DNA of 64,000 bases from an uncultured Candidatus Saccharibacteria bacterium (GTDB taxonomy: Bacteria; Patescibacteriota; Saccharimonadia; Saccharimonadales; JAGQNJ01). The translations under genes were made by a program, and so were the position numbers. The DNA lies in the NCBI GenBank assembly GCA_964565615.1, contig CAZMFO010000002.1, positions 16,824 to 80,823 on the forward strand, read 5' to 3'. This document shows, piece by piece, positions 5,823 through 52,207 of this stretch. The notes below the pieces were generated by a model that saw only the letters and a list, made by a program, of their open reading frames with translations, did not search any database and was not told the origin of the DNA. Each line of letters starts with the position of its first letter. The stretch's first letter is position 1.

Positions 5823-6891
5823 ATCTAAATTCAACGACATCATCCGGTTGCATTATGTAAGTTTTGCCTTCGGTACGGACTTTTCCTGCCGATTTAGCCT
5901 TAGATTCGCTACCAGCATTAATTAAATCGTGATAATTGATTATTTGAGCGACGATAAAACCTCGTTCAAAATCACCGTGAATAACACCAGCCGCTTGAGG
6001 TGCGGTAGCCCCTTTTTTAATTGTCCACGCACGGACTTCTTTTTCTCCAGCTGTTAGGTAGCTTTGTAGGTTGAGAATATCATAAGCTGTTTGAATAAGT
6101 TGTTCTAGCCCAGAAGTCTTAACTCCATAACTTGTTAAAAGTTCTTGCTTGTCAGCTTGGTTGAGGCTTTTAAGTTCTTCTTCAAGCTTGGCGCAAATAA
6201 AAATTGCTTTAGAATGTGGCACGAGTGTAGCAAGTTGTTCTGTTTTTCGTTTGTTTGTTAGCGTTTCCTCGTCTACATTAAAGACATAAATTACCGGTTT
6301 TGTAGTAAGCAGATGTAGATCACTTAGTTTGTTCATATCTTCTTCAGAAAACTGGCTGTTGATTGGCTTGCCTTCATTAAGGCACTGTTTAGCGTTTTCT
6401 AATAGATGCACTTGGCTATTGAGTTTTGGGTTAGCTCGTGCCTCTTTGGCAAGTTTTGGTAGGCGTTTTTCGATGGTCTGTAAATCGGCAAGGATTAGTT
6501 CTGTATTAATAACATCAATATCTTTTTTCGGCGAGTGGTTGTTATCAATGTGCTGAATGTCGGTGTCTTCAAAAGCACGCACAACATGACAAATGGCATT
6601 ACAATTACGAATGTTGGCTAAAAACTGGTTTCCCAAACCTTCGCCTTGGCTGGCCCCAGCTACTAAGCCCGCTATATCAACAAATGTTACTGTTGCCGGA
6701 ACTATTTTAGACGATTGATACAGCTCGGCAAGTTTGTTTAGCCTTTGGTCGGGTATTGGTACAATGCCGGTATTTGGTTCAATAGTTGCAAAAGGGTAGT
6801 TTGCTATTAGTATGTTGTTGTCTGTCAAGGCATTAAATAATGTACTTTTGCCAACATTGGGCAAGCCCACAATGCCAATAGATAAACTCAT
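5812..6891 (-). CDS. ychF: ribosome-binding ATPase YchF
   Basis: GIVGLPNVGKSTLFNALT P-loop, NYPFATIEPN, VDIAGLV, C-terminal TGS-like IHGDFERGFI. Confidence 0.9.
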   Translation of the reverse strand: MSLSIGIVGLPNVGKSTLFNALTDNNILIANYPFATIEPNTGIVPIPDQRLNKLAELYQSSKIVPATVTFVDIAGLVAGASQGEGLGNQFLANIRNCNAICHVVRAFEDTDIQHIDNNHSPKKDIDVINTELILADLQTIEKRLPKLAKEARANPKLNSQVHLLENAKQCLNEGKPINSQFSEEDMNKLSDLHLLTTKPVIYVFNVDEETLTNKRKTEQLATLVPHSKAIFICAKLEEELKSLNQADKQELLTSYGVKTSGLEQLIQTAYDILNLQSYLTAGEKEVRAWTIKKGATAPQAAGVIHGDFERGFIVAQIINYHDLINAGSESKAKSAGKVRTEGKTYIMQPDDVVEFRFNV

Positions 6892-10895: not shown

Positions 10896-12924
10896 ATTTC
10901 GAACGATACTGTTGATCAGTTGGTTATGTGTCGTAAGTGGGATTTGCTTTGTATTTTCTGGCAAAGCCTACGGAGCTCCAGTACCAACGGTATATGAAGA
11001 CACATCGGGATGGCCGGCAGACGCCTTAAGTGTAGTACAGGGCTATTGTAATAATAATCCCGGACAGCCATTGTCAACTACTATATGGATCTCTGATGCT
11101 TCAAATCAAGGTAGGACATCTGTTACTATTGCATCGGGTCAACCGCTTAATTTGGCTTGGCAGATTGGTACCTATAGATGCGGTAGCACATGGAACCCAC
11201 CCACCCCTAATCCAATATTGGGGGGGCAGTATGGTTACTTCAGACCTACAGGTGGACGCTACAGAGTCTTGGATAGCGCCAATAATGCTGGGCCGTGGAT
11301 TAGCATCCCTTCATTAAGTACTGATATAGCTAATGCTTTGACACAACTCCCTCCGCAGGCAAGTGGCTCTAATAATGCGTCTAGGTCATCATGGGCATTT
11401 CCTATAGATACGAGCGGGTTTACACCTGGATCTACTCTTACTGTTGAAGTTGAAGTACCCTCTAAGCAGTATGCATTTTATCCCGGAACACCAAATATAT
11501 TTGTTTGTATTGAGGATAATACTCCAACCATAATGAATGTCCCACCACATCCGCTTTATACCGGCGATCCAAATAACGACGTTTTGAATATCTGTAGGGA
11601 GCCAAGACCAAGCTTGAGGATTACCGTTAATGTCGCACCCATTAGGCACTTTGATCTAACTCCTCAGACACCTGTAATTAATGGGAAGAACAGCGTTAGT
11701 TTTGATATATCGAATAGTGGGGATGGCAATTCTAGATATGATTCTGGTGGTGTTAAAACTGGGGTAACAGCAACCATTAATATTTGGAAGAATCCTGACC
11801 CCACGTATACTACTGGAAGAATCTATAATGGAACCGTAAATAACATAGATATCGGACCAGGTTCAAGCTGGAGTAGTGTATTGGGTAGTATGTATCCTGT
11901 CCCTCTCCCACCAGGGTTAGTTTTGGGAGATCAAATTTGTGCTCAAATTCAAATACAGCCCGCTACGGGTGTTACAGATGGTGCTTCTGACCCGGGAAGT
12001 CGTAGCGCGAATGGTGGCCAGCCCGTTTGCATTAGCCTGATTGCTCGGCCTTACTTTAGGGTTTACGGGGGCGATGTTATTGCTGGTCGTAAGATCGCAA
12101 ATGGGGTTAATGCTGATTGCACCAAGGATGTTGACAAGAGCGTAAAGGGATACACTAAACAAGTTGGTTCTAAGTGGGTTGGTGCTGGGTCGCAGTTCGC
12201 CGTTAGTGCTACAGGTGCAATCGAAGGATTTATGAGTGCTAGTATGCACAACGATGCTTCGGGTGGTAGTGAGGTCCCCAGGCCTAGCGGTGGACTAAGT
12301 TTTATGAACTCAGGCAATGGCCCTGCTAACCCTCTTGGTTTTGATGGTTCTGCATATATTGGCTGTGCCCCGGATTATGATAGTTATGTAAAGAATAATG
12401 GTGGTTATACTCCCAGTGGCGGAGGACCTGCGACTTTATTAAGTGGCTTGCCTGCTGGAAATAGGCTTTACTTAGATGGAGATTTAACTATAAATGGGAA
12501 TATAGAAGATCTAACAACAGAATGGGACTCTATTGCCGATATTAAGCCAGTAATAGTTATTGTAAAAGGTAACATTAATATAGCTAGCAATGTGACGCGA
12601 CTAGATGGGTTATACGTGGCTTTGCCTAAGAGTGACGATACAGGGGTGATTAATACATGCTTTCCAATGTCAGCGAGTTGTAGCAACAATAAGCTTACTG
12701 TTAACGGTGCTTTTGTAGCAAAGACAGTCAACCTTTATCGAACTAATGGAGATCTTGAGTCTGCTACGTCAAATGAGTTGGGTGATAGCCCTCATATAGC
12801 TGAAGTATTTAACTTTCCGACCTCTTTCTACCTAGGCCTAAAATACAATGTCTTTAATCCTACTAACCCAGACGCCGTACAAAGAAAATACGATACCATT
12901 GTTGGTTTACCGCCAATACTATAA
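10855..12924 (+). CDS. large secreted hypothetical protein
   Basis: 689-aa ORF; N-terminal signal-like segment ending GKAYGAP; no recognisable catalytic motif; start uncertain because it overlaps the upstream ORF. Confidence 0.45.
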   Translation: MFVYLPHQTFLSNRFRTILLISWLCVVSGICFVFSGKAYGAPVPTVYEDTSGWPADALSVVQGYCNNNPGQPLSTTIWISDASNQGRTSVTIASGQPLNLAWQIGTYRCGSTWNPPTPNPILGGQYGYFRPTGGRYRVLDSANNAGPWISIPSLSTDIANALTQLPPQASGSNNASRSSWAFPIDTSGFTPGSTLTVEVEVPSKQYAFYPGTPNIFVCIEDNTPTIMNVPPHPLYTGDPNNDVLNICREPRPSLRITVNVAPIRHFDLTPQTPVINGKNSVSFDISNSGDGNSRYDSGGVKTGVTATINIWKNPDPTYTTGRIYNGTVNNIDIGPGSSWSSVLGSMYPVPLPPGLVLGDQICAQIQIQPATGVTDGASDPGSRSANGGQPVCISLIARPYFRVYGGDVIAGRKIANGVNADCTKDVDKSVKGYTKQVGSKWVGAGSQFAVSATGAIEGFMSASMHNDASGGSEVPRPSGGLSFMNSGNGPANPLGFDGSAYIGCAPDYDSYVKNNGGYTPSGGGPATLLSGLPAGNRLYLDGDLTINGNIEDLTTEWDSIADIKPVIVIVKGNINIASNVTRLDGLYVALPKSDDTGVINTCFPMSASCSNNKLTVNGAFVAKTVNLYRTNGDLESATSNELGDSPHIAEVFNFPTSFYLGLKYNVFNPTNPDAVQRKYDTIVGLPPIL

Positions 12925-14014: not shown

Positions 14015-14706
14015 TGGTCCAATTTAACTTGTTACCAGATGTAAAATTAGAGTATCTTAAGGCACAAAAGACAAAGCGTACTGTACTTCTTGGCGTTATT
14101 TCTGTAACTGCCTTGATGGTGTTTATTTTTGTTTTGCTGTTTTTAATTGTTAATGTTTTTCAGAAACAGCACCTTACTAACCTAAACGAAAACATCGAAA
14201 CCAAAACAAAGGAGCTTAAAGCTGTTCCTGATTTAGATAAAGTATTGACTGTTCAAAACCAATTAAAGGTTTTGCCAAAGCTACACGAAGACAAGCCAGC
14301 TACCAGTCGGTTGGCCGGCTATCTTGTTCAGTTGACGCCTTCTGATGCTAAGATTACAGATGTAACTATTGATTTTAGCGCCTCAACGATTGATTTAAAT
14401 GGTACAGCCGGTAACCTAGAGACAATTAACCGATTTGCTGATATTTTAAAGTTTACTAGCTATAAGGTTGTTAACGAGGAAGAGTCAGATAAAGCCTTTT
14501 CGGAGGTAGTACTAAAGGACTTTGGAGTACAGTCAGCTGACGGTGGGCGACCTTCATATGGCATTCAGTTTAAGTTTAATCCAATTATATTCAATAATAC
14601 GAAAAATGTTCAATTAGCAGTGCCAAACATTATTTCTACTCGTTCTATTACCGAAAAGCCAACCGACTTATTTGAGAAGAAGCAACCAACAGCACCGAGG
14701 CAATAA
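14014..14706 (+). CDS. pilN: PilN-like bitopic pilus assembly protein
   Basis: MVQFNLLP N-terminus, single TM, position after pilM with ATGA-type coupling. Confidence 0.6.
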   Translation: MVQFNLLPDVKLEYLKAQKTKRTVLLGVISVTALMVFIFVLLFLIVNVFQKQHLTNLNENIETKTKELKAVPDLDKVLTVQNQLKVLPKLHEDKPATSRLAGYLVQLTPSDAKITDVTIDFSASTIDLNGTAGNLETINRFADILKFTSYKVVNEEESDKAFSEVVLKDFGVQSADGGRPSYGIQFKFNPIIFNNTKNVQLAVPNIISTRSITEKPTDLFEKKQPTAPRQ

Positions 14707-30379: not shown

Positions 30380-30455
30380 GCCACCTTAGCTCAGTTGGTA
30401 GAGCGACGCATTCGTAACGCGTAGGTCAGCAGTTCAATCCTGCTAGGTGGCTCCA
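30380..30455 (+). tRNA. tRNA-Thr (anticodon CGU), CCA encoded; integration target
   Basis: Acceptor gccacct/aggtggc, loop ttCGTaa, T-arm agcag-ttcaatc-ctgct. The 3' GCTCCA is the left junction of the element. Confidence 0.85.
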
Positions 30456-31986
30456 GAATACGACTTTTTTCAAGATTTGACGGCGTTGCCGTCATTTTTT
30501 GTAGGGTTTGGCGAAAGCCAAACCAAATGTTTTCTTGGGGGGAATGAGATTTTGGATCGCTGGAAGCGACCGCATTTTTGTTTTTGAGTTTGAGGTTCAA
30601 CCCGAAAATTTCCAGCAATAGCGACTTTTTGGCGTTTTGGTCGGCGGAATGAGCGATTTTACAGATAGAAACTGCTCTTTCTAGCCAATTACTCAGCGGT
30701 TCAACCCACTCTAAAGTGCCTAAATGTAAATCGCTCATTTGCTCCTCTATGGTTTTCTTTTGGCTCATAATCTCGGCTTTCTTTTGCGTGTATATTTCAC
30801 GCTCCAAAACGCCGTCAAGAAAACCGTCCAAAAGTCTTTGTAATTTCTCGGACAAATGTGTGAGTTCCCTCCGCATGCCGTTAATTTTACCGTCTATTTG
30901 CTCTTTGTCTGCCAGTTCGTCCGCAGTAGCCCACACACGCATTTTGTCCGCATATTCTTTGGGCAAAGCGAAGCCAGCCAACAGGTCAGATAACTGCTGA
31001 TCTAAAAGTTCAGAACGAACGGCAGGTTCAATACACTTCACAGTTTTGTTTTTACGGCTACACCTATAATAGACATAATGGTGCGTGTTGCCGTTCTTCT
31101 GCCGTTTCGTTTTGTTTTCAGCAGTTATCATCATTCCGCAACTGCAACGCAGTAGTCCGCAGTAGGCTTGTGGCTCTATCAAGCCTTTTGTTGGGTGGCT
31201 TCGCTGTTCTATGACGGCTTGCACTTTATCAAACAGTTTCTTGCTAATAATTGGCGTATGTTTACCCTCGTGTACCTCGCCGCCATATATGAAATGACCG
31301 TAATAAAACGGATTTTTCAAGATATATTTAACCTTGTCTTTGCTATACGGCTTACCACCGCTAGTCTTAACGCCACGCTCAAACAAATAATCTGATATAT
31401 CTTGAAAAGTGCTTTGCCCCAAAGAATATAGAACAAAAATCGCTTCAACTAATTCGGCTTGGCGTTTGTCTATATGCACCGTTTTACTTTTGGTGTTGTT
31501 ATAGTAGCCAAATGGGGCAATTCCGGGGAACTCGCCACGCCGAATTTTTTGGCGAAGCCCACGCTTGGTATTCTCGCTCAAATTATCTACATAGTATTTG
31601 CTCTGACCAAAAGCAATGTTCAGCATAAACTTACCCTGACTGGTATTCTCAAACCAAAAAGTCTGAAACTTTAAGTCAGCTAGGTGGTTTTGGTCAAGCA
31701 AATAGATAATTTGTCCACCGTCAATGCTGTTTCTTGCTAGTCTATCGGGGTGCCACGCTAGTATTGCGTTGGCTTCGCCATTTTGTATGCGTTTTAACAC
31801 TTCGGCGAACTTCGGGCGACCTGGTGTTTTAGCAGATTTCTTTTCAATAACGGTATCTATCACGACTAAGCCGTTATCTTTAGCGTACTTCCGAAGTTCT
31901 GCCAGCTGTGCCTCAATAGACAAGACTTGCTTGTCCTCAACGTCTGTACTCTTACGAGCATACAAAATGTAGCGATTTTTGTTCAT
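30391..31986 (-). CDS. large serine recombinase (integrase)
   Basis: Resolvase-type catalytic N-terminus (YILYARKSTDVEDKQVLSIEAQ, HPDRLARN), recombinase domain, Cys-rich zinc ribbon (CGLLRCSCG...YYRCSRK) and a coiled-coil region. The ORF runs through the attachment core into the tRNA-Thr sequence. Confidence 0.9.
   Translation of the reverse strand: MNKNRYILYARKSTDVEDKQVLSIEAQLAELRKYAKDNGLVVIDTVIEKKSAKTPGRPKFAEVLKRIQNGEANAILAWHPDRLARNSIDGGQIIYLLDQNHLADLKFQTFWFENTSQGKFMLNIAFGQSKYYVDNLSENTKRGLRQKIRRGEFPGIAPFGYYNNTKSKTVHIDKRQAELVEAIFVLYSLGQSTFQDISDYLFERGVKTSGGKPYSKDKVKYILKNPFYYGHFIYGGEVHEGKHTPIISKKLFDKVQAVIEQRSHPTKGLIEPQAYCGLLRCSCGMMITAENKTKRQKNGNTHHYVYYRCSRKNKTVKCIEPAVRSELLDQQLSDLLAGFALPKEYADKMRVWATADELADKEQIDGKINGMRRELTHLSEKLQRLLDGFLDGVLEREIYTQKKAEIMSQKKTIEEQMSDLHLGTLEWVEPLSNWLERAVSICKIAHSADQNAKKSLLLEIFGLNLKLKNKNAVASSDPKSHSPQENIWFGFRQTLQKMTATPSNLEKSRILEPPSRIELLTYALRMRRSTN
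30451..30586 (+). repeat. IR arm A (136 bp), left-terminal copy
   Basis: Reverse complement of 32132-32267 with one mismatch by eye (30556 vs 32162). That mismatch is synonymous (GAT/GAC Asp) in the recombinase frame. Confidence 0.9.
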
Positions 31987-32131
31987 AGCAATTACCCCCA
32001 TAATTTTAATGACCGCCCCAGTTGCGTACAATCAAGAGAAATCTTGTTTGTCTGGGACGGTCATTAAAAAAGACCTCTCTGTTAGATTGTACGCACTACC
32101 ATTTTACCAAATAAAAACCGCCTATGGCGGG

Positions 32132-32517
32132 CAAAAACAAAAATGCGGTCGCTTCCAGCGACCCAAAATCTCATTCCCCCCAAGAAAACATTTGGTTTGG
32201 CTTTCGCCAAACCCTACAAAAAATGACGGCAACGCCGTCAAATCTTGAAAAAAGTCGTATTCTGGAGCATTTCTACCGAAACGCTAGAACCTATTTTAGC
32301 AAAAACCAACAGATAAGAACAGATGTGAAGTGGAAAAAAGAGGACAACCTGCGAAACCAGCCCCGCCGTTAGCTTGCGAAAGTCGCAAGCCCGCCCCGCC
32401 AGCCCTGGATTTTGATTGTTTTTGGATTTCCCCCCGCCGAATTTCTTTTTTGTAGTTGAGAAAATCCAGGTCTGTCGGGTCGGCTGCCGAAAACGGCAGA
32501 AACGGCGTGGCTTTGGG
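32132..32517 (+). repeat. internal 386-bp unit (A' + core + B), an inverted copy of the joined element ends
   Basis: 32132-32267 is the reverse complement of 30451-30586; 32268-32517 is the reverse complement of 35372-35621 (250/250 by eye). Confidence 0.9.
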
Positions 32518-32584
32518 GCAAAACGCCTGTGCTTGGTACAGATATAGGTTCCTGTTATACTAAAGAAAAGATTTTGGAGGTTTT

Positions 32585-34762
32585 ATGTCTTTTGAAGTTG
32601 TTAAGCAATATGAAACACCGCCCAATGAGTTTAACCCGCTCGCTGGACACCCTGACCCAGAGCAATTGACACTAGATAGTCTACGTCAAGGTACTTTGCT
32701 TGCAGGGCGGGAAAAGCCGCTCACATGGGAGCTTGATGAAATCACTTCGGAAGGTGCTTTGCACCGTTACCGCGCACAAGCGGAGATTGAAGCACTTATC
32801 AACCTTGCAGAACGCGGGCCAGTCGAAGTTGAAATTGATGAGACACAAAAGGAGACCTTACGCTCACTCTACAGCTCAGAAGTGTTTGACCCAGAGGTTG
32901 TGATACGGCTTGACCACCTCGGCTACAAGGGGCGTCCGCCACTTGAGCATGACGTTAAAGCAGTTGAAGTATACCTCGCAGAGTTGCTTGACGAAGCTGA
33001 TTTGGGACATCTCAAAGAGTGGGTTCACTTCGGTATGACATCGGAAGATACCAACAACCTTGCCTATAATTACATGCTGCGCGACGCGGCAAACAAAGTT
33101 GTTATACCATCAGTGGCGCGAGTTGCCGACAGATTGGCACATCTTGCGGCTATCTATGCTGACACGCCGACACTTGGCACGACCCACGCGCAAAAGGCTT
33201 CGCCAACGACTGTCGGCAAACAGTTTGGCTACCTACTCTCAAACATCACTCAAGTTGTCGGCGAGCTGGACGAACAGCGACTGACGGGCAAATTCAGCGG
33301 CGCAGTCGGCAATCACAATCCAATGTCGGTACTTTTTCCAGATTTTGACTATGACGCATATGCAAGGGATTTTGTTGAGTCACAAGGCTTTGATTATTCG
33401 CCGGTTGAAAATCAGCGCAATAATCATTTAGCAGTAACCGATTTCCTCGATACTGTGCAGCGTCTGGCGGTTGTCGGCAAAGATGGAACCGATAATGTCT
33501 GGCTGCAAATATTGAACGGCACACTCAAGCAAAAACTGGTTGCGGGTGAAAAAGGTTCATCTACCATGTCGCACAAAATCAATCCGTGGCGACTTGAGAA
33601 CAGCGAATCATTGTTTGAACAGGCTATCGCCTTATCAGGGCGAGTAAGCGAGGGGCTTGTGGCTAGTCGCCACGAACGCGATTTATCAGATCACGATTGG
33701 CAGCGTGCCTATGGCGATATTTTAGGTAGACTGGTCGCTGGCTATAACTATTTTGCAATCCAACTTGACCGCTTGGCTGTCGATGAAGCGCAAACCGGAA
33801 AAACACTCGCCGAATCAGCAGAAGTATTAAGCGAACTAATACAAACAGCAGGTCGGGTATCGGGCGACCCCGAAGCATACGATAAGGTTGTTACACTAAC
33901 CCAGGGCAAGAAGCTTGATTATGCGGGTATTCAGGAAGTCATTAAAGCAGCTTTGCCAGACGGTGAACTACGCGACAGAGTGCTTGCTACAACCCCCGAA
34001 AGTTATACCGGTATTGCAGGCGATAAGGCGCGCGAGGCGGTGTTGGGCTGGCATGCAATCAAAGGTGTAGTTTTACGCGGCGTGCTTGATGAGTCAACCA
34101 GTGTAGACGCAGTGCTGTTTGATTTTGACAATACTTTGCACTTTGGCGACAAAGACGAATTGTTCGCGCGCTTGTCGAGTATTGCTTCGCAGCTTGGCTC
34201 TGGCTATACAGAGGAAGAAATCCGCACTTTCGGAAATCGCAGCGATTATCTCGAAATGAAAAAACTCATGGTCGAAGAACATAATCGCCGCTTCCCGAAT
34301 AGCCGCATTTCTGAGGCTGATTTTCAGGAGGCTAACGATTCGGTAACAGGCAGTTTTGACTACTTGCTCACACCAGCGCCGAGAGCAGCAGAGATTTTGG
34401 AACAGCTACGCGATTCTGGCAAAAAAACGGGGCTGGTAACAACGCGCGGCAATAATTCGCGCGATAGATTGCTACAACATCATGGCCTTGCCGATTCATT
34501 TGATGTTATTGTTGGTCGCGGCGATGCCGCGCAGCGCAAACCGCACCCGCAGCCAATCGCCCTCGCGCTTGCAAAGCTAGGCGTCGATAACTACAGGCGC
34601 ACCCTGTATGTTGGCGATTTGCAGATTGACGACGTGGGAGCGGGTAATGCGCTCGGCATGAAAACAGCACTTATAAATGACACGCCGCTTGACCCTCAGG
34701 GTCCTGTGCCGACTTACCATTGGGCATCATTAGAACCGCTAGCGCGTAGGTATACGAGGTAA
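32585..34762 (+). CDS. adenylosuccinate lyase-like (fumarate-lyase superfamily) / HAD phosphatase fusion protein
   Basis: PurB-like motifs HFGMTSEDTNN, TLGTTHAQKASPTTVGKQ, GKFSGAVGNHN and the signature GSSTMSHKINPWRLENSE. C-terminal HAD motifs VLFDFDNTL (DxDxT), LVTTRG, KPHPQP, YVGDLQIDDVGAGNA. RBS ggagg upstream. Confidence 0.75.
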   Translation: MSFEVVKQYETPPNEFNPLAGHPDPEQLTLDSLRQGTLLAGREKPLTWELDEITSEGALHRYRAQAEIEALINLAERGPVEVEIDETQKETLRSLYSSEVFDPEVVIRLDHLGYKGRPPLEHDVKAVEVYLAELLDEADLGHLKEWVHFGMTSEDTNNLAYNYMLRDAANKVVIPSVARVADRLAHLAAIYADTPTLGTTHAQKASPTTVGKQFGYLLSNITQVVGELDEQRLTGKFSGAVGNHNPMSVLFPDFDYDAYARDFVESQGFDYSPVENQRNNHLAVTDFLDTVQRLAVVGKDGTDNVWLQILNGTLKQKLVAGEKGSSTMSHKINPWRLENSESLFEQAIALSGRVSEGLVASRHERDLSDHDWQRAYGDILGRLVAGYNYFAIQLDRLAVDEAQTGKTLAESAEVLSELIQTAGRVSGDPEAYDKVVTLTQGKKLDYAGIQEVIKAALPDGELRDRVLATTPESYTGIAGDKAREAVLGWHAIKGVVLRGVLDESTSVDAVLFDFDNTLHFGDKDELFARLSSIASQLGSGYTEEEIRTFGNRSDYLEMKKLMVEEHNRRFPNSRISEADFQEANDSVTGSFDYLLTPAPRAAEILEQLRDSGKKTGLVTTRGNNSRDRLLQHHGLADSFDVIVGRGDAAQRKPHPQPIALALAKLGVDNYRRTLYVGDLQIDDVGAGNALGMKTALINDTPLDPQGPVPTYHWASLEPLARRYTR

Positions 34763-35331
34763 TGGCCGAGAAAATACCAATTTCCGGCGGGCCACACACT
34801 GGCAAAACAACGCTACTTGAAGCGTTAAGAGTGCAGTTTCCAGACGCTCATTTCGTTCCAGAACCTGCCACGAATGTAATTACAAGAGAGCTTGAAACAG
34901 AGCGAGCAAACCCAAGCCATAAACCGCGTGTACCCTGGGTAGACTATCGACAGTTCGGCCCACTCGTTGCCGAAGAATCAGAAGTGCTTGAATCAGATAT
35001 ACCAGAGGCAGCCACAATCGCTTTTCAGGACAGAAGTCTTATCGACACAATCGCATATAGCCGCCTTAATAACTTTGATGAGTTTGTGCCAGAAGTAAGC
35101 CGTAGAGTTGCAATTGCTCGGTACAGCTTTGCGCTAATTTGCCAGCCAGTCGGCGAGTATACCACTACAACAGTCAGGCGAGAAACGCAGGACGAAGCCC
35201 TACAAACACACCTAGAGATTGAGCGTGCTTATAATGAGTCTGGCATTGAAGTCATATCAATCCCTGCAATCAGTACCAATGAGCGCGTTGCGCTCATTAC
35301 AGAAGTCCTGCAATCTCGTAGCTTGGTTTGA
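34762..35331 (+). CDS. small P-loop NTPase (AAA_28/NadR-like, COG3911-type predicted ATPase or kinase)
   Basis: Walker A ISGGPHTGKTTLLEAL, FVPEPAT, FQDRSLIDTIAY; start overlaps the upstream stop (TAATG). Confidence 0.6.
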   Translation: MAEKIPISGGPHTGKTTLLEALRVQFPDAHFVPEPATNVITRELETERANPSHKPRVPWVDYRQFGPLVAEESEVLESDIPEAATIAFQDRSLIDTIAYSRLNNFDEFVPEVSRRVAIARYSFALICQPVGEYTTTTVRRETQDEALQTHLEIERAYNESGIEVISIPAISTNERVALITEVLQSRSLV

Positions 35332-35371
35332 TTTGTATATGTGTCGCTTGCGACACATGGCGGCTCTGCCG

Positions 35372-35626
35372 CCCAAAGCCACGCCGTTTCTGCCGTTTTC
35401 GGCAGCCGACCCGACAGACCTGGATTTTCTCAACTACAAAAAAGAAATTCGGCGGGGGGAAATCCAAAAACAATCAAAATCCAGGGCTGGCGGGGCGGGC
35501 TTGCGACTTTCGCAAGCTAACGGCGGGGCTGGTTTCGCAGGTTGTCCTCTTTTTTCCACTTCACATCTGTTCTTATCTGTTGGTTTTTGCTAAAATAGGT
35601 TCTAGCGTTTCGGTAGAAATGCTCCA
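35372..35626 (+). repeat. IR arm B' (250 bp + CTCCA core), right-terminal copy
   Basis: Perfect reverse complement of 32268-32517; ends ...cggtagaaatgCTCCA, 3 nt before tRNA-Gly. Confidence 0.9.
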
Positions 35627-35629
35627 TTT

Positions 35630-35703
35630 GCGGGATTAGTATAGTGATAGTACGCTTGCTTCCCAAGCAAGAGGTACGAGTTTGATTCTCGTATCCCGCA
35701 CCA
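35630..35703 (+). tRNA. tRNA-Gly (anticodon CCC), CCA encoded
   Basis: Acceptor gcgggat/atcccgc, anticodon stem cttgc/gcaag, loop ttCCCaa, T-arm acgag-tttgatt-ctcgt. Confidence 0.85.
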
Positions 35704-51940: not shown

Positions 51941-52207
51941 CGACCGCCAGGCCGTTTCTGCCCTTTTGGGCAGGCGACCCGACTGACTTGATTTTTTCTC
52001 AACTGAAAAAAGAAATTTGGTTGGGGTAAAAATCAAGAAATTGTAAAAATCAGGGCTGGCGGAGCGGGTCAGCCTTTTCACCCCACAAAATTCGCTGCGC
52101 TGGATTATTGAGGGGACCCCGATTTGGCTGGAAACAGTAGGGCTTGGTTTCTCGTTTTCAGCTATTTGCCATAAAATAGGTTCTAGTCTCGTTGTAGAGG
52201 CAAATCA
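51941..52207 (+). repeat. B-type repeat arm (copy D), diverged
   Basis: Shares gccgtttctgcc-hairpin, cgacccgac, ttctcaact.aaaaaagaaatt, cagggctggcgg.gcggg and ccataaaataggttctag.ctcgttgtagagg with 35372-35621 and 49604-49823. Confidence 0.7.

Follow-up and report, generated by a model that had tools for sequence, protein, structure and literature searches.

Large serine recombinases (LSRs) are prized as genome-engineering tools for their directionality, which normally depends on a separate protein, the recombination directionality factor (RDF). Targeting of tRNA genes is typical of tyrosine integrases and not of serine ones. The locus described here lies in a 64,000-nucleotide stretch of an uncultured Candidatus Saccharibacteria genome (assembly GCA_964565615.1, contig CAZMFO010000002.1; the whole of this stretch is called the window, and positions are counted from its first letter). 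It is a mobile element at 30456-35620, placed by an LSR at the CCA end of a tRNA-Thr(CGT) gene, whose attachment site (attP) overlaps the 3' end of the open reading frame (ORF) of its own recombinase. The LSRs of SPbeta (SprA), Listeria A118 (LI integrase), PhiC31 and Bxb1 have the same fold and domain order as this enzyme, namely resolvase, recombinase and zinc-ribbon domains with an embedded coiled coil; likewise they act at a short core with no long duplication, and likewise the distal motif of the P-type half-site lies further out than that of the B-type, by 4 bp here as against 5 bp for the LI integrase (PMC3783163). Unlike those LSRs, the recombinases considered here target the CCA end of many tRNA genes, have the attP crossover inside the integrase ORF, carry a predicted two-helix extension of about 60-80 amino acids and are accompanied by a second, inverted attP within the element, and no RDF gene was identified.

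Conceptually, the closest known system appears, by analogy, to be that of the SSV-type 'suicidal' tyrosine integrases of archaeal viruses and plasmids, in which attP lies within the integrase ORF and a tRNA gene is the target (PMC7253208). The two share the position of the site within the integrase ORF, a product that is changed by integration and the tRNA-gene target. They differ in that the SSV-type enzyme is a tyrosine recombinase of archaeal hosts, whereas the enzyme here is a serine recombinase of bacterial hosts, and in that the SSV-type gene is split into two pseudogenes, whereas here the 3' end alone is affected and only the last 14-36 residues are exchanged. Unlike the SSV-type elements, the element described here also keeps a spare copy of the lost part, in inverted orientation.

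Inversions that join a constant N-terminal part to alternative C-termini are known from the Mu G segment (Gin), the P1 C segment (Cin) and the shufflons, where either a small serine invertase, working together with an enhancer and Fis, or the tyrosine recombinase Rci acts on sites of 26-34 bp in tail-fibre or pilin genes. Inverted repeats around a segment and a crossover in coding sequence are shared with these systems, but here it is the recombinase itself that is altered, the repeats are 105-360 nt long and the inversion is deduced from two flipped loci. SCCmec (CcrAB) and Tn4451 (TnpX) are moved by LSRs that excise and insert without a known RDF, and circularisation of Tn4451 alters expression of its recombinase via a joint promoter. 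These are likewise small non-phage cargo elements inserted at the 3' end of a conserved gene; here, however, the state-dependence lies at the protein C-terminus and not at a promoter, and those elements lack the dual inverted attP. The yeast 2-micron plasmid holds FRT, the target of the tyrosine recombinase FLP, within inverted repeats of 599 bp, and inversion leads to copy-number amplification. The circle predicted for the present element would share with it two unique segments split by long inverted repeats that hold the recombinase target; unlike the plasmid, the element has no replication genes and its sites also serve chromosomal integration. Tycheposons differ as well, being mostly tyrosine-integrase elements.

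None of the systems compared combines a serine integrase with the targeting of tRNA-CCA ends, with a crossover inside the 3' end of its own ORF and with a conserved, inverted spare attP, and a literature search found no description of this recombinase-element family, which thus appears to be an undescribed variant of LSR elements. The reading proposed here, to which a probability of about 0.55 is assigned, is that integration strips a functional C-terminal helix from the recombinase and so locks the element, and that the spare inverted tail can restore the helix. If this is true, the state of the element is written into the C-terminus of its recombinase by recombination, which would be a new and compact principle of control and a bacterial serine-recombinase counterpart of the archaeal 'suicidal' tyrosine integrases. 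The family itself marks a large, apparently undescribed class of small cargo elements in bacteria of the candidate phyla radiation (CPR), whose gene exchange is little known, and the use of a T-arm-mimicking attP half-site at many tRNA CCA ends offers a ready series of related integrases with predictable, distinct targets.

An integrative element with three copies of the core

The features on which the argument rests are the following.

30380-30455, plus strand: tRNA-Thr(CGT) (ARAGORN; Rfam tRNA, 62.5 bits)
30391-30449, minus strand: tRNA-derived tail of the integrated form, PPSRIELLTYALRMRRSTN, then TGA from the D-loop (ORF translation)
30391-31986, minus strand: large serine recombinase gene, 531 amino acids in the integrated form (Pfam; 100% identical to database protein P0001; Foldseek)
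30450-30586: inverted repeat A, arm 1 (core and arm A), coding for recombinase residues ~468-512
30456-35620: inserted mobile element, 5,165 bp between core copies (exact empty site; composition profile)
32132-32268: inverted repeat A, arm 2 (A'), where the last 45 recombinase codons and the core recur in inverse orientation
32263-32268: internal core copy TGGAGC (S2), the exact 6-nt overlap of repeats A and B
32263-32517: inverted repeat B, arm 1, 255 nt, 100% identical
32269-32372, plus strand: arm-B coding of the native (attP-form) tail, HFYRNARTYFSKNQQIRTDVKWKKEDNLRNQPRR and stop, its first ~29 nt being the putative P-type half-site with the T-loop mimic GCTAGAACCTATTTT
35372-35626: inverted repeat B, arm 2 (B'), ending in core GCTCCA at 35621-35626 (S3, attR)
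35627-35703, plus strand: right chromosomal flank, TTT spacer and tRNA-Gly(CCC) (tRNA scan, empty-site contigs)

The sequence between the core copies is a discrete integrative element of a CPR genome. Two independent Logan contigs from different runs, L122 and L123, join position 30455 straight to position 35621 at 100% identity and contain the predicted empty site (attB), ...AGGTGGCTCCA followed directly by TTTGCGGGATTAG..., or, with a longer left side, ...CTGCTAGGTGGCTCCA followed by TTTGCGGGATTAG...; the occupied and empty sites differ by exactly the element and one 6-bp copy of the core. These contigs were reached by a look-up of the protein encoded just right of tRNA-Gly, and an exact-pattern scan of metagenome contigs gave no match to the predicted empty site. 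In the composition profile, the GC content of the element (45-53%) exceeds that of its flanks (38-41%).

The enzyme has the Pfam domains Resolvase (PF00239, E 1.3e-24), Recombinase (PF07508) and Zn_ribbon_recom (PF13408), and its N-terminal catalytic domain is of the resolvase type with the nucleophilic serine. More specifically, in the catalytic motif Y-A-R-K-S-T-D, R11 and K12 are invariant among 91 homologues and S13 is present in at least 90% of them. Foldseek matched SPbeta SprA (9dxh, E 1e-18), 4kis, PhiC31 and Bxb1, and both Foldseek and the PDB sequence search place SprA as the closest LSR fold. The best NCBIfam match, CcrB, scored 142.7 bits against a cut-off of 900 and no curated subfamily was reached; a score so far under the equivalog cut-off rules out membership of the Ccr group (CcrA/B/C). 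A small serine invertase of the Hin/Gin/Cin kind is ruled out by the length of the protein (531 amino acids, an LSR) and of the repeats (137 and 255 nt), and an SSV-type tyrosine recombinase by the enzyme being a serine recombinase. Only relatives of at most 41% identity were found in IMG/VR, from which the family does not appear to be phage-borne.

The minus-strand open frame spans 30391-32031 and ends in ...KSRILEPPSRIELLTYALRMRRSTN and a stop; the probable start is the ATG at 31986, with GGGGGT ahead of it, which yields the 531 residues of P0001. As the preliminary description of this locus had stated, the frame has no stop before the core, which is the 6-bp GCTCCA, and continues into the tRNA gene. 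Codons 1-512 are element DNA and codons 513-531 are antisense tRNA-Thr; over its final 65 nt the ORF overlaps the tRNA in antisense, and the C-terminus of the integrated form reads ...KSRILE followed by PPSRIELLTYALRMRRSTN.

Six nucleotides are common to three places in the locus. The last six bases of tRNA-Thr, GCTCCA, form the core copy S1 at 30450-30455, between the tRNA and arm A; the reverse complement, TGGAGC, forms S2 at 32263-32268, where A' meets B; and S3 at 35621-35626 lies between B' and the TTT spacer of tRNA-Gly. Judged by sequence, S1 corresponds to attL and S3 to attR, the 3' part of tRNA-Thr being the chromosomal (B-type) half-site, and S2 (A'-core-B) is a full copy of attP (B'-core-A) in inverted orientation, with the crossover point within GCTCCA. 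Repeat A is 137 nt long and 136 of the 137 positions are identical (99%), the single mismatch being a synonymous change in an Asp codon. Thus, the element consists of a recombinase module and a cargo module, each lying between long, near-perfect inverted repeats that meet at the spare site.

The exchanged C-terminus of the recombinase

Homologues of P0001 number in the thousands and their names point to Saccharibacteria and Nomurabacteria. A genome scan (one genome per species) returned 80 loci, nearly all in Patescibacteria/CPR, and a scan of metagenome contigs returned 80 more, for a family set of about 160 relatives (83 genome-scan and look-up loci, 80 metagenome loci). At its 3' end the recombinase gene meets an antisense tRNA gene in 68 of the 83 genome-scan and look-up loci and in 57 of the 80 metagenome loci, 21 of the remaining metagenome loci having no 3' end on the contig. 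The layout recurs in most of these loci, that is, in over a hundred elements, far beyond chance, and 23 tRNA isoacceptors are targeted. In the relatives, repeat A is 105-165 nt long and mostly 98-100% identical; one arm ends 5-6 nt inside the tRNA 3' end and the other lies 50-270 nt upstream of the recombinase start in loci with enough sequence. Repeat B is 100-360 nt long, mostly 100% identical, adjoins repeat A with an overlap of 5-7 nt (seen at the core in about 30 relatives) and flanks 1-8 kb of variable cargo. Two relatives, L004 at tRNA-Thr GGT and L006 at tRNA-Lys, have this same layout and unrelated cargos. The arms differ by 9-13% between elements and are near-identical inside one element. 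In every case the outer limit of repeat A coincides with the end of the conserved ...F-G-x-N-L motif (the last zinc-ribbon hairpin), so that the repeat takes in precisely the extension past the canonical fold. A library-wide search with a profile of this extension matched 658 representative clusters, mostly fragments.

Inverted repeats and odd ORFs of this kind could in principle be products of metagenome mis-assembly, since assemblers can collapse repeats longer than k and many of the relatives are on contigs of 1.8-2.5 kb that end inside the repeats. Against this stand the recurrence of one architecture in over 100 loci that come from a variety of assemblers, studies and phyla and lie on contigs of up to 972 kb, the arms that remain uncollapsed at 85-99% identity and the exactness of the empty site. 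An artefact is thus exceedingly improbable and, for the layout as a whole, effectively refuted.

That the two junction states encode different tails, as the preliminary description had claimed, is borne out by naturally occurring sequences. The recombinase modules of L001, which encodes the protein P0002, and of L007 are more than 99.7% identical up to TGGAGC; past this point L001 enters arm B and L007 enters tRNA-Thr(GGT). The L001 junction is robust, repeat A being perfect over only 64 nt there and the assembler k being 141. The native tail is found in 12 of the 120 best homologues (plus P0013). A flipped integrated order, tRNA(+)-core-A'-promoter-recombinase, is present in L074 (tRNA-Glu) and L157 (tRNA-Arg), where the A' copy adjoins the tRNA instead of the gene. 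By census, about 125 loci have the recombinase running into the tRNA and 2 are flipped; L080 was rejected as a flipped locus, as it has a tRNA upstream of the recombinase gene but no A' arm. The native-tail contigs (L001-L003, L124, L125 and L135) all begin inside A' or nearer to the gene, and each may be either a circle or a flipped integrated copy. Alternative pairings across repeat B, with a second chromosomal flank, were seen in L126-L133; these were discounted as proof of cargo inversion, as repeat B (255 nt) exceeds both k and the read length, and are suggestive only.

The structures of both forms were predicted with AlphaFold from the same 91-sequence alignment. In the native form, P0002 (96% identical to the enzyme of the window), two helices, 487-500 and 504-530, follow the last zinc-ribbon hairpin with a predicted local distance difference test (pLDDT) score of about 80 up to residue 520, and the second of them crosses the core junction at 512/513. 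In the integrated form, P0001, helix 487-500 alone is predicted, with lower confidence, and residues 501-531 are without secondary structure (pLDDT 32-40). Long helices at 343-422, between the zinc-ribbon elements, make up the embedded coiled coil of the model. Pro or Gly occurs within the first four residues of the tRNA-derived tail at 62 of 68 loci. These models suggest that the native tail would complete a two-helix C-terminal extension past the canonical LSR fold.

To follow the native tail through the family, attP-form frames were built for each locus by continuing the recombinase ORF, from the core onwards, into the sequence that follows A'. In the attP configuration, which is that of the excised circle or of a flipped recombinase segment, the ORF runs on into arm B, and in the window the core falls at codons 511-513 of an attP-form ORF of 548 codons. 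The frame is open and carries the motif [L/F/I]-Y-x-x-[A/V/I]-R-T-[Y/H]-F-x-x-N-x-stop in all 51 non-redundant elements, whose proteins are 49-100% identical. The stop lies 12 codons past the Tyr in 34 of the 51 (TGA in 28, TAA in 5, TAG in 1) and at +10 to +14 in 45, and the codon that precedes it is highly variable; in the subclade of the window the usual stop has been lost and the tail reads on to 36 residues. Upstream of the core, conservation of the protein reaches K497, 14 residues away (W488, L491, R492, K497). Thus, the homologues do not stop short of the core, an outcome by which the preliminary description would have taken the tail for non-coding read-through. Periodicity of the coding type, with NTN at -1, AAN at +10 and the use of CGN as well as AGR codons for Arg, suggests that the native tail is translated, and the ratio of nonsynonymous to synonymous polymorphism (pN/pS) is 0.65 in the tail frame as against 0.79-1.05 in the other five frames.

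The same nucleotides appear to have a second role. Taken as their reverse complement, the codons of A-R-T-Y-F give the conserved attP half-site AAAATAGGTTCGAGC in arm B', a mimic of the tRNA T-loop, and much of the conservation of the tail could therefore be at the DNA level. In the left half-site, the distance between GTTC and the CCA end is 24 nt for the tRNA and 28 nt for arm B', and this offset of +4 holds in 38 of 39 pairs. For the LI integrase, the motif bound by the zinc-ribbon domain (ZD) is shifted by 5 bp between attP and attB (PMC3783163), and the +4 offset would be the signature expected of B-type and P-type LSR half-sites. Arm B would thus double as a P-type half-site, mimicking the T-arm with its motif 4 bp further from the core, and as the code for the tail; DNA-site and coding constraints therefore overlap in arm B and do not appear to be fully separable.

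It is on this overlap that the case for neutral read-through is built, in which attP merely overlaps the 3' end of the gene, the tail is conserved as a half-site and both tails are functionally irrelevant. The T-loop mimicry of A-R-T-Y-F, the conservation of third codon positions within the motif and a pN/pS no lower than 0.65 all fit such an account, as does the range of tRNA-derived tails, from 4 to 122 amino acids, with no visible harm to persistence. It does not readily explain why the stop keeps its position although three kinds of stop codon are used and the codon next to it varies, nor the NTN and AAN periodicity at positions beyond the DNA motif, the prediction of a junction-spanning helix only with the native tail, or the retention of the entire extension as a spare copy in every element. 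Moreover, the T-loop variant GGTTCAA, which is common in tRNAs and would make a TGA stop in arm B, is found in none of the 51 elements, a hint of coding constraint. Neutral read-through is a possible but doubtful explanation. The exchange of the tail is real and conserved; its role in the structure is probable, and a role in function is inferred. Of the tail switch put forward in the preliminary description, the state-dependent exchange stands and the switch in directionality is conjecture.

A proposed locking and unlocking of the element

In the proposed mechanism, the enzyme with the native tail would be the active form, and circles and flipped copies would keep recombining. Integration would remove the second helix and leave an attenuated or 'locked' enzyme, such that the tail-swapped state would be a stable sink and accumulate. 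The spare A'-B site would preserve the native tail, which excision or inversion across repeat A could re-join to the gene; a crossover anywhere within repeat A would bring the gene back to arm B. If a circle carries two identical attP sites in inverted orientation, integration would be expected to occur either way round; nearly all chromosomal copies nonetheless have a recombinase that reads into the tRNA, which is most simply explained if the native-tail enzyme is the active one. Repeat B would be needed because two copies of arm B are required, one at S2 to serve as the spare tail and one at the far end from which attP is rebuilt on excision. Recurrent inversion or gene conversion would keep the arms near-identical within an element.

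Several points weigh against this reading, in addition to the likely DNA-level share in the conservation of the tail and a pN/pS that is only modestly low. The AlphaFold models are of moderate confidence (predicted template modelling score, pTM, 0.39-0.46). No excised circle junction was unambiguously recovered. The alternative junctions come from short-read assemblies, in which repeats longer than k can mis-pair and repeat arms can collapse to a false 100% identity, and L001 alone has a shortened repeat and hence a clearly robust junction. The bias towards the recombinase-into-tRNA state has other possible causes. The functional effect of the tail swap, in its direction and its size, is pure inference.

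A switch of the opposite sense may also be considered, with the native tail serving integration, the tRNA-tail form being competent for excision and the tail thus acting as a built-in RDF. RDFs act near the region of the last zinc-ribbon-domain hairpin in the SPbeta and PhiC31 complexes, and it is right after this hairpin that the extension begins; nor is any RDF-like accessory gene conserved among the cargos, which differ between close relatives. RDFs are, however, diverse, and one encoded by the host or by a helper could serve instead. If the tRNA-tail form promoted excision, the great excess of recombinase-into-tRNA loci (125 against 2 flipped) would be unexpected, and tRNA-derived tails that are mutually unrelated over 23 isoacceptors, some of only 4-7 amino acids, could share no specific gain of function. 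A switch of this sense is improbable.

The repeats may instead serve modular exchange, the recombinase module (A/A') and the cargo module (B/B') being separately swappable and the repeats being there for swapping or for cargo inversion and not for the tail. Close recombinase modules do carry unrelated cargos (the window, L007, L004 and L006), an identical cargo with repeat B occurs at a different flank and in alternative repeat pairings (L126-L132), and L001 has a mosaic A' arm that derives from another lineage. Exchange of modules leaves unexplained why repeat A always starts from the end of the zinc-ribbon domain and spans the whole extension, as well as the conserved coding features of arm B, and no recombinase-only or cargo-only insertions were seen. 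As the sole purpose of the repeats it is rather unlikely; it is compatible with the locking of the element by its exchanged tail and not exclusive of it.

In its fullest form, the locking reading may be extended to a self-locking and self-unlocking integrase, in which the attP-spanning helix would be needed for activity or directionality, integration would disable or re-programme the enzyme without an RDF, and the inverted spare cassette, its sequence maintained by inversion or gene conversion, would allow occasional flips or excision to rebuild the active enzyme, throughout the family in CPR bacteria and at 23 or more tRNA targets. The T-arm-mimicking P-type half-site would at the same time code for this helix. 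This extension is offered tentatively, as a doubtful but possible generalisation.

The 82-codon frame, the cargo and further observations

The remaining features of the element are as follows.

31987-32131: recombinase upstream region (18-nt palindrome, 32004-32021 / 32052-32069)
32124-32372, plus strand: 82-codon ORF, consisting of ATG and 2 unique codons, then ~45 codons of A', then 36 codons of arm B
32585-35331, plus strand: cargo, an adenylosuccinate-lyase/HAD-phosphatase fusion (725 amino acids) and an AAA_28 (NadR-like) ATPase (189 amino acids) (Pfam, NCBIfam)

The 82-codon ORF, which reads MAGKNKNAVASSDPKSH...KSRILEHFYRNARTYFSKNQQIRTDVKWKKEDNLRNQPRR and a stop and whose residues 4-46 repeat the recombinase C-terminus as an inverted copy, is present where the preliminary description had placed it; the further suggestion that it encodes a separate tail peptide fares less well. 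An expressed small protein of this kind would be a free two-helix extension that regulates the recombinase in trans, as an RDF or an inhibitor. The ORF does hold the complete extension, both helices with the native tail, and gene callers annotate equivalent ORFs in many genomes: a profile search brought up many called small ORFs of 56-122 amino acids (56-120 amino acids for the equivalent annotations), and 92 of the 120 listed end in the native motif. Some start codon also occurs within 5 codons of the repeat boundary in about half of the loci, but this frequency is close to chance for a 10-codon window. No Shine-Dalgarno sequence precedes the ATG at 32124, which falls 6-8 nt outside repeat A. 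Across 56 loci, start codons ahead of the repeat are absent or inconsistently placed, with neither their type nor their position conserved and many loci having none upstream of the repeat, and the N-termini of the 120 listed small ORFs are heterogeneous, with TTG, GTG or ATG at varied positions or with the promoter region translated. The frame is open because coding DNA has been copied and arm B is open. Thus, a small protein acting in trans is quite unlikely, and the 82-codon ORF is better read as a by-product of the inverted internal attP copy, a stored native tail and not a conserved gene.

The cargo had no PADLOC match to defence genes, and the Rfam search found no RNAs besides tRNAs. In L127, L128 and L131, the cargo of the window (the 725-residue fusion and the 189-residue ATPase) and repeat B occur at 99.6-100% nucleotide identity next to another flank, with a gene for 89 amino acids, ribosomal protein L33 and tRNA-Trp, and the cargo is found there in both orientations. 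Either the module has moved and flipped or the 255-nt repeat has been mis-paired by assemblers.

Many members of the family lie on contigs of 1.8-2.5 kb or no more than a few hundred bases from where a contig ends, with the breaks inside repeat A or B, and these elements systematically fragment short-read assemblies of CPR genomes. Other loci bear traces of a more complex history. In L004, the flank to the left of the distal arm B (6560-6578), GGATACGACTTTT, resembles arm A of the window, GAATACGACTTTTTT, which suggests that an earlier or a tandem insertion at this tRNA has left a scar. L056 (8,880 bp) is decayed or rearranged: a frameshifted recombinase with the native tail is followed downstream by cargo, and a separate 116-residue C-terminal recombinase fragment adjoins tRNA-Ile. 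The recombinase of L024 enters only about 20 nt of the 3' end of tRNA-Leu (11536-11560) and an intact tRNA-Leu(TAA) lies 2.9 kb further on (14445-14530), which suggests that something else was later inserted at the same tRNA. The tails of L031, L032 and L051 (...VRSYRIYLNF... or ...VRNYRTYSNF...) are neither tRNA-derived nor of the arm-B motif, and in L032 the GGTTC lies about 20 nt from the core, not 24 or 28.

Arm A contains hairpins at 30478-30494 and 30505-30524, mirrored at 32224-32240 and 32194-32213, which are terminator-like, with T-runs, in the sense of the tRNA, while the opposite strand codes for conserved recombinase residues; in relatives, ...EK-A-x-x-GDNF... corresponds to GTCGCCC-N4-GGGCGAC and a T-run. 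Such an arrangement resembles an overlapping code, by which tRNA read-through into the element would be halted. The hairpins may thus insulate the recombinase module from such read-through, which may be a second reason for the length of repeat A. The upstream palindrome, TTTTAATGACCGCCCCAG / CTGGGACGGTCATTAAAA, is also present in the matching region of L004 and L006 and may act as an operator or form a hairpin in the transcript. Folding of the arm-B region gives z = -2.6 (strongly structured). Elsewhere in the window, at 51946-52068, there is a lone copy of about 125 nt that is 80% identical to the distal arm B (32390-32511 / 35378-35499); it sits between a small regulator-like gene and a methyltransferase-like gene, has no core, tail-coding part or tRNA next to it, and may be what is left of another element or else a structured repeat in its own right.

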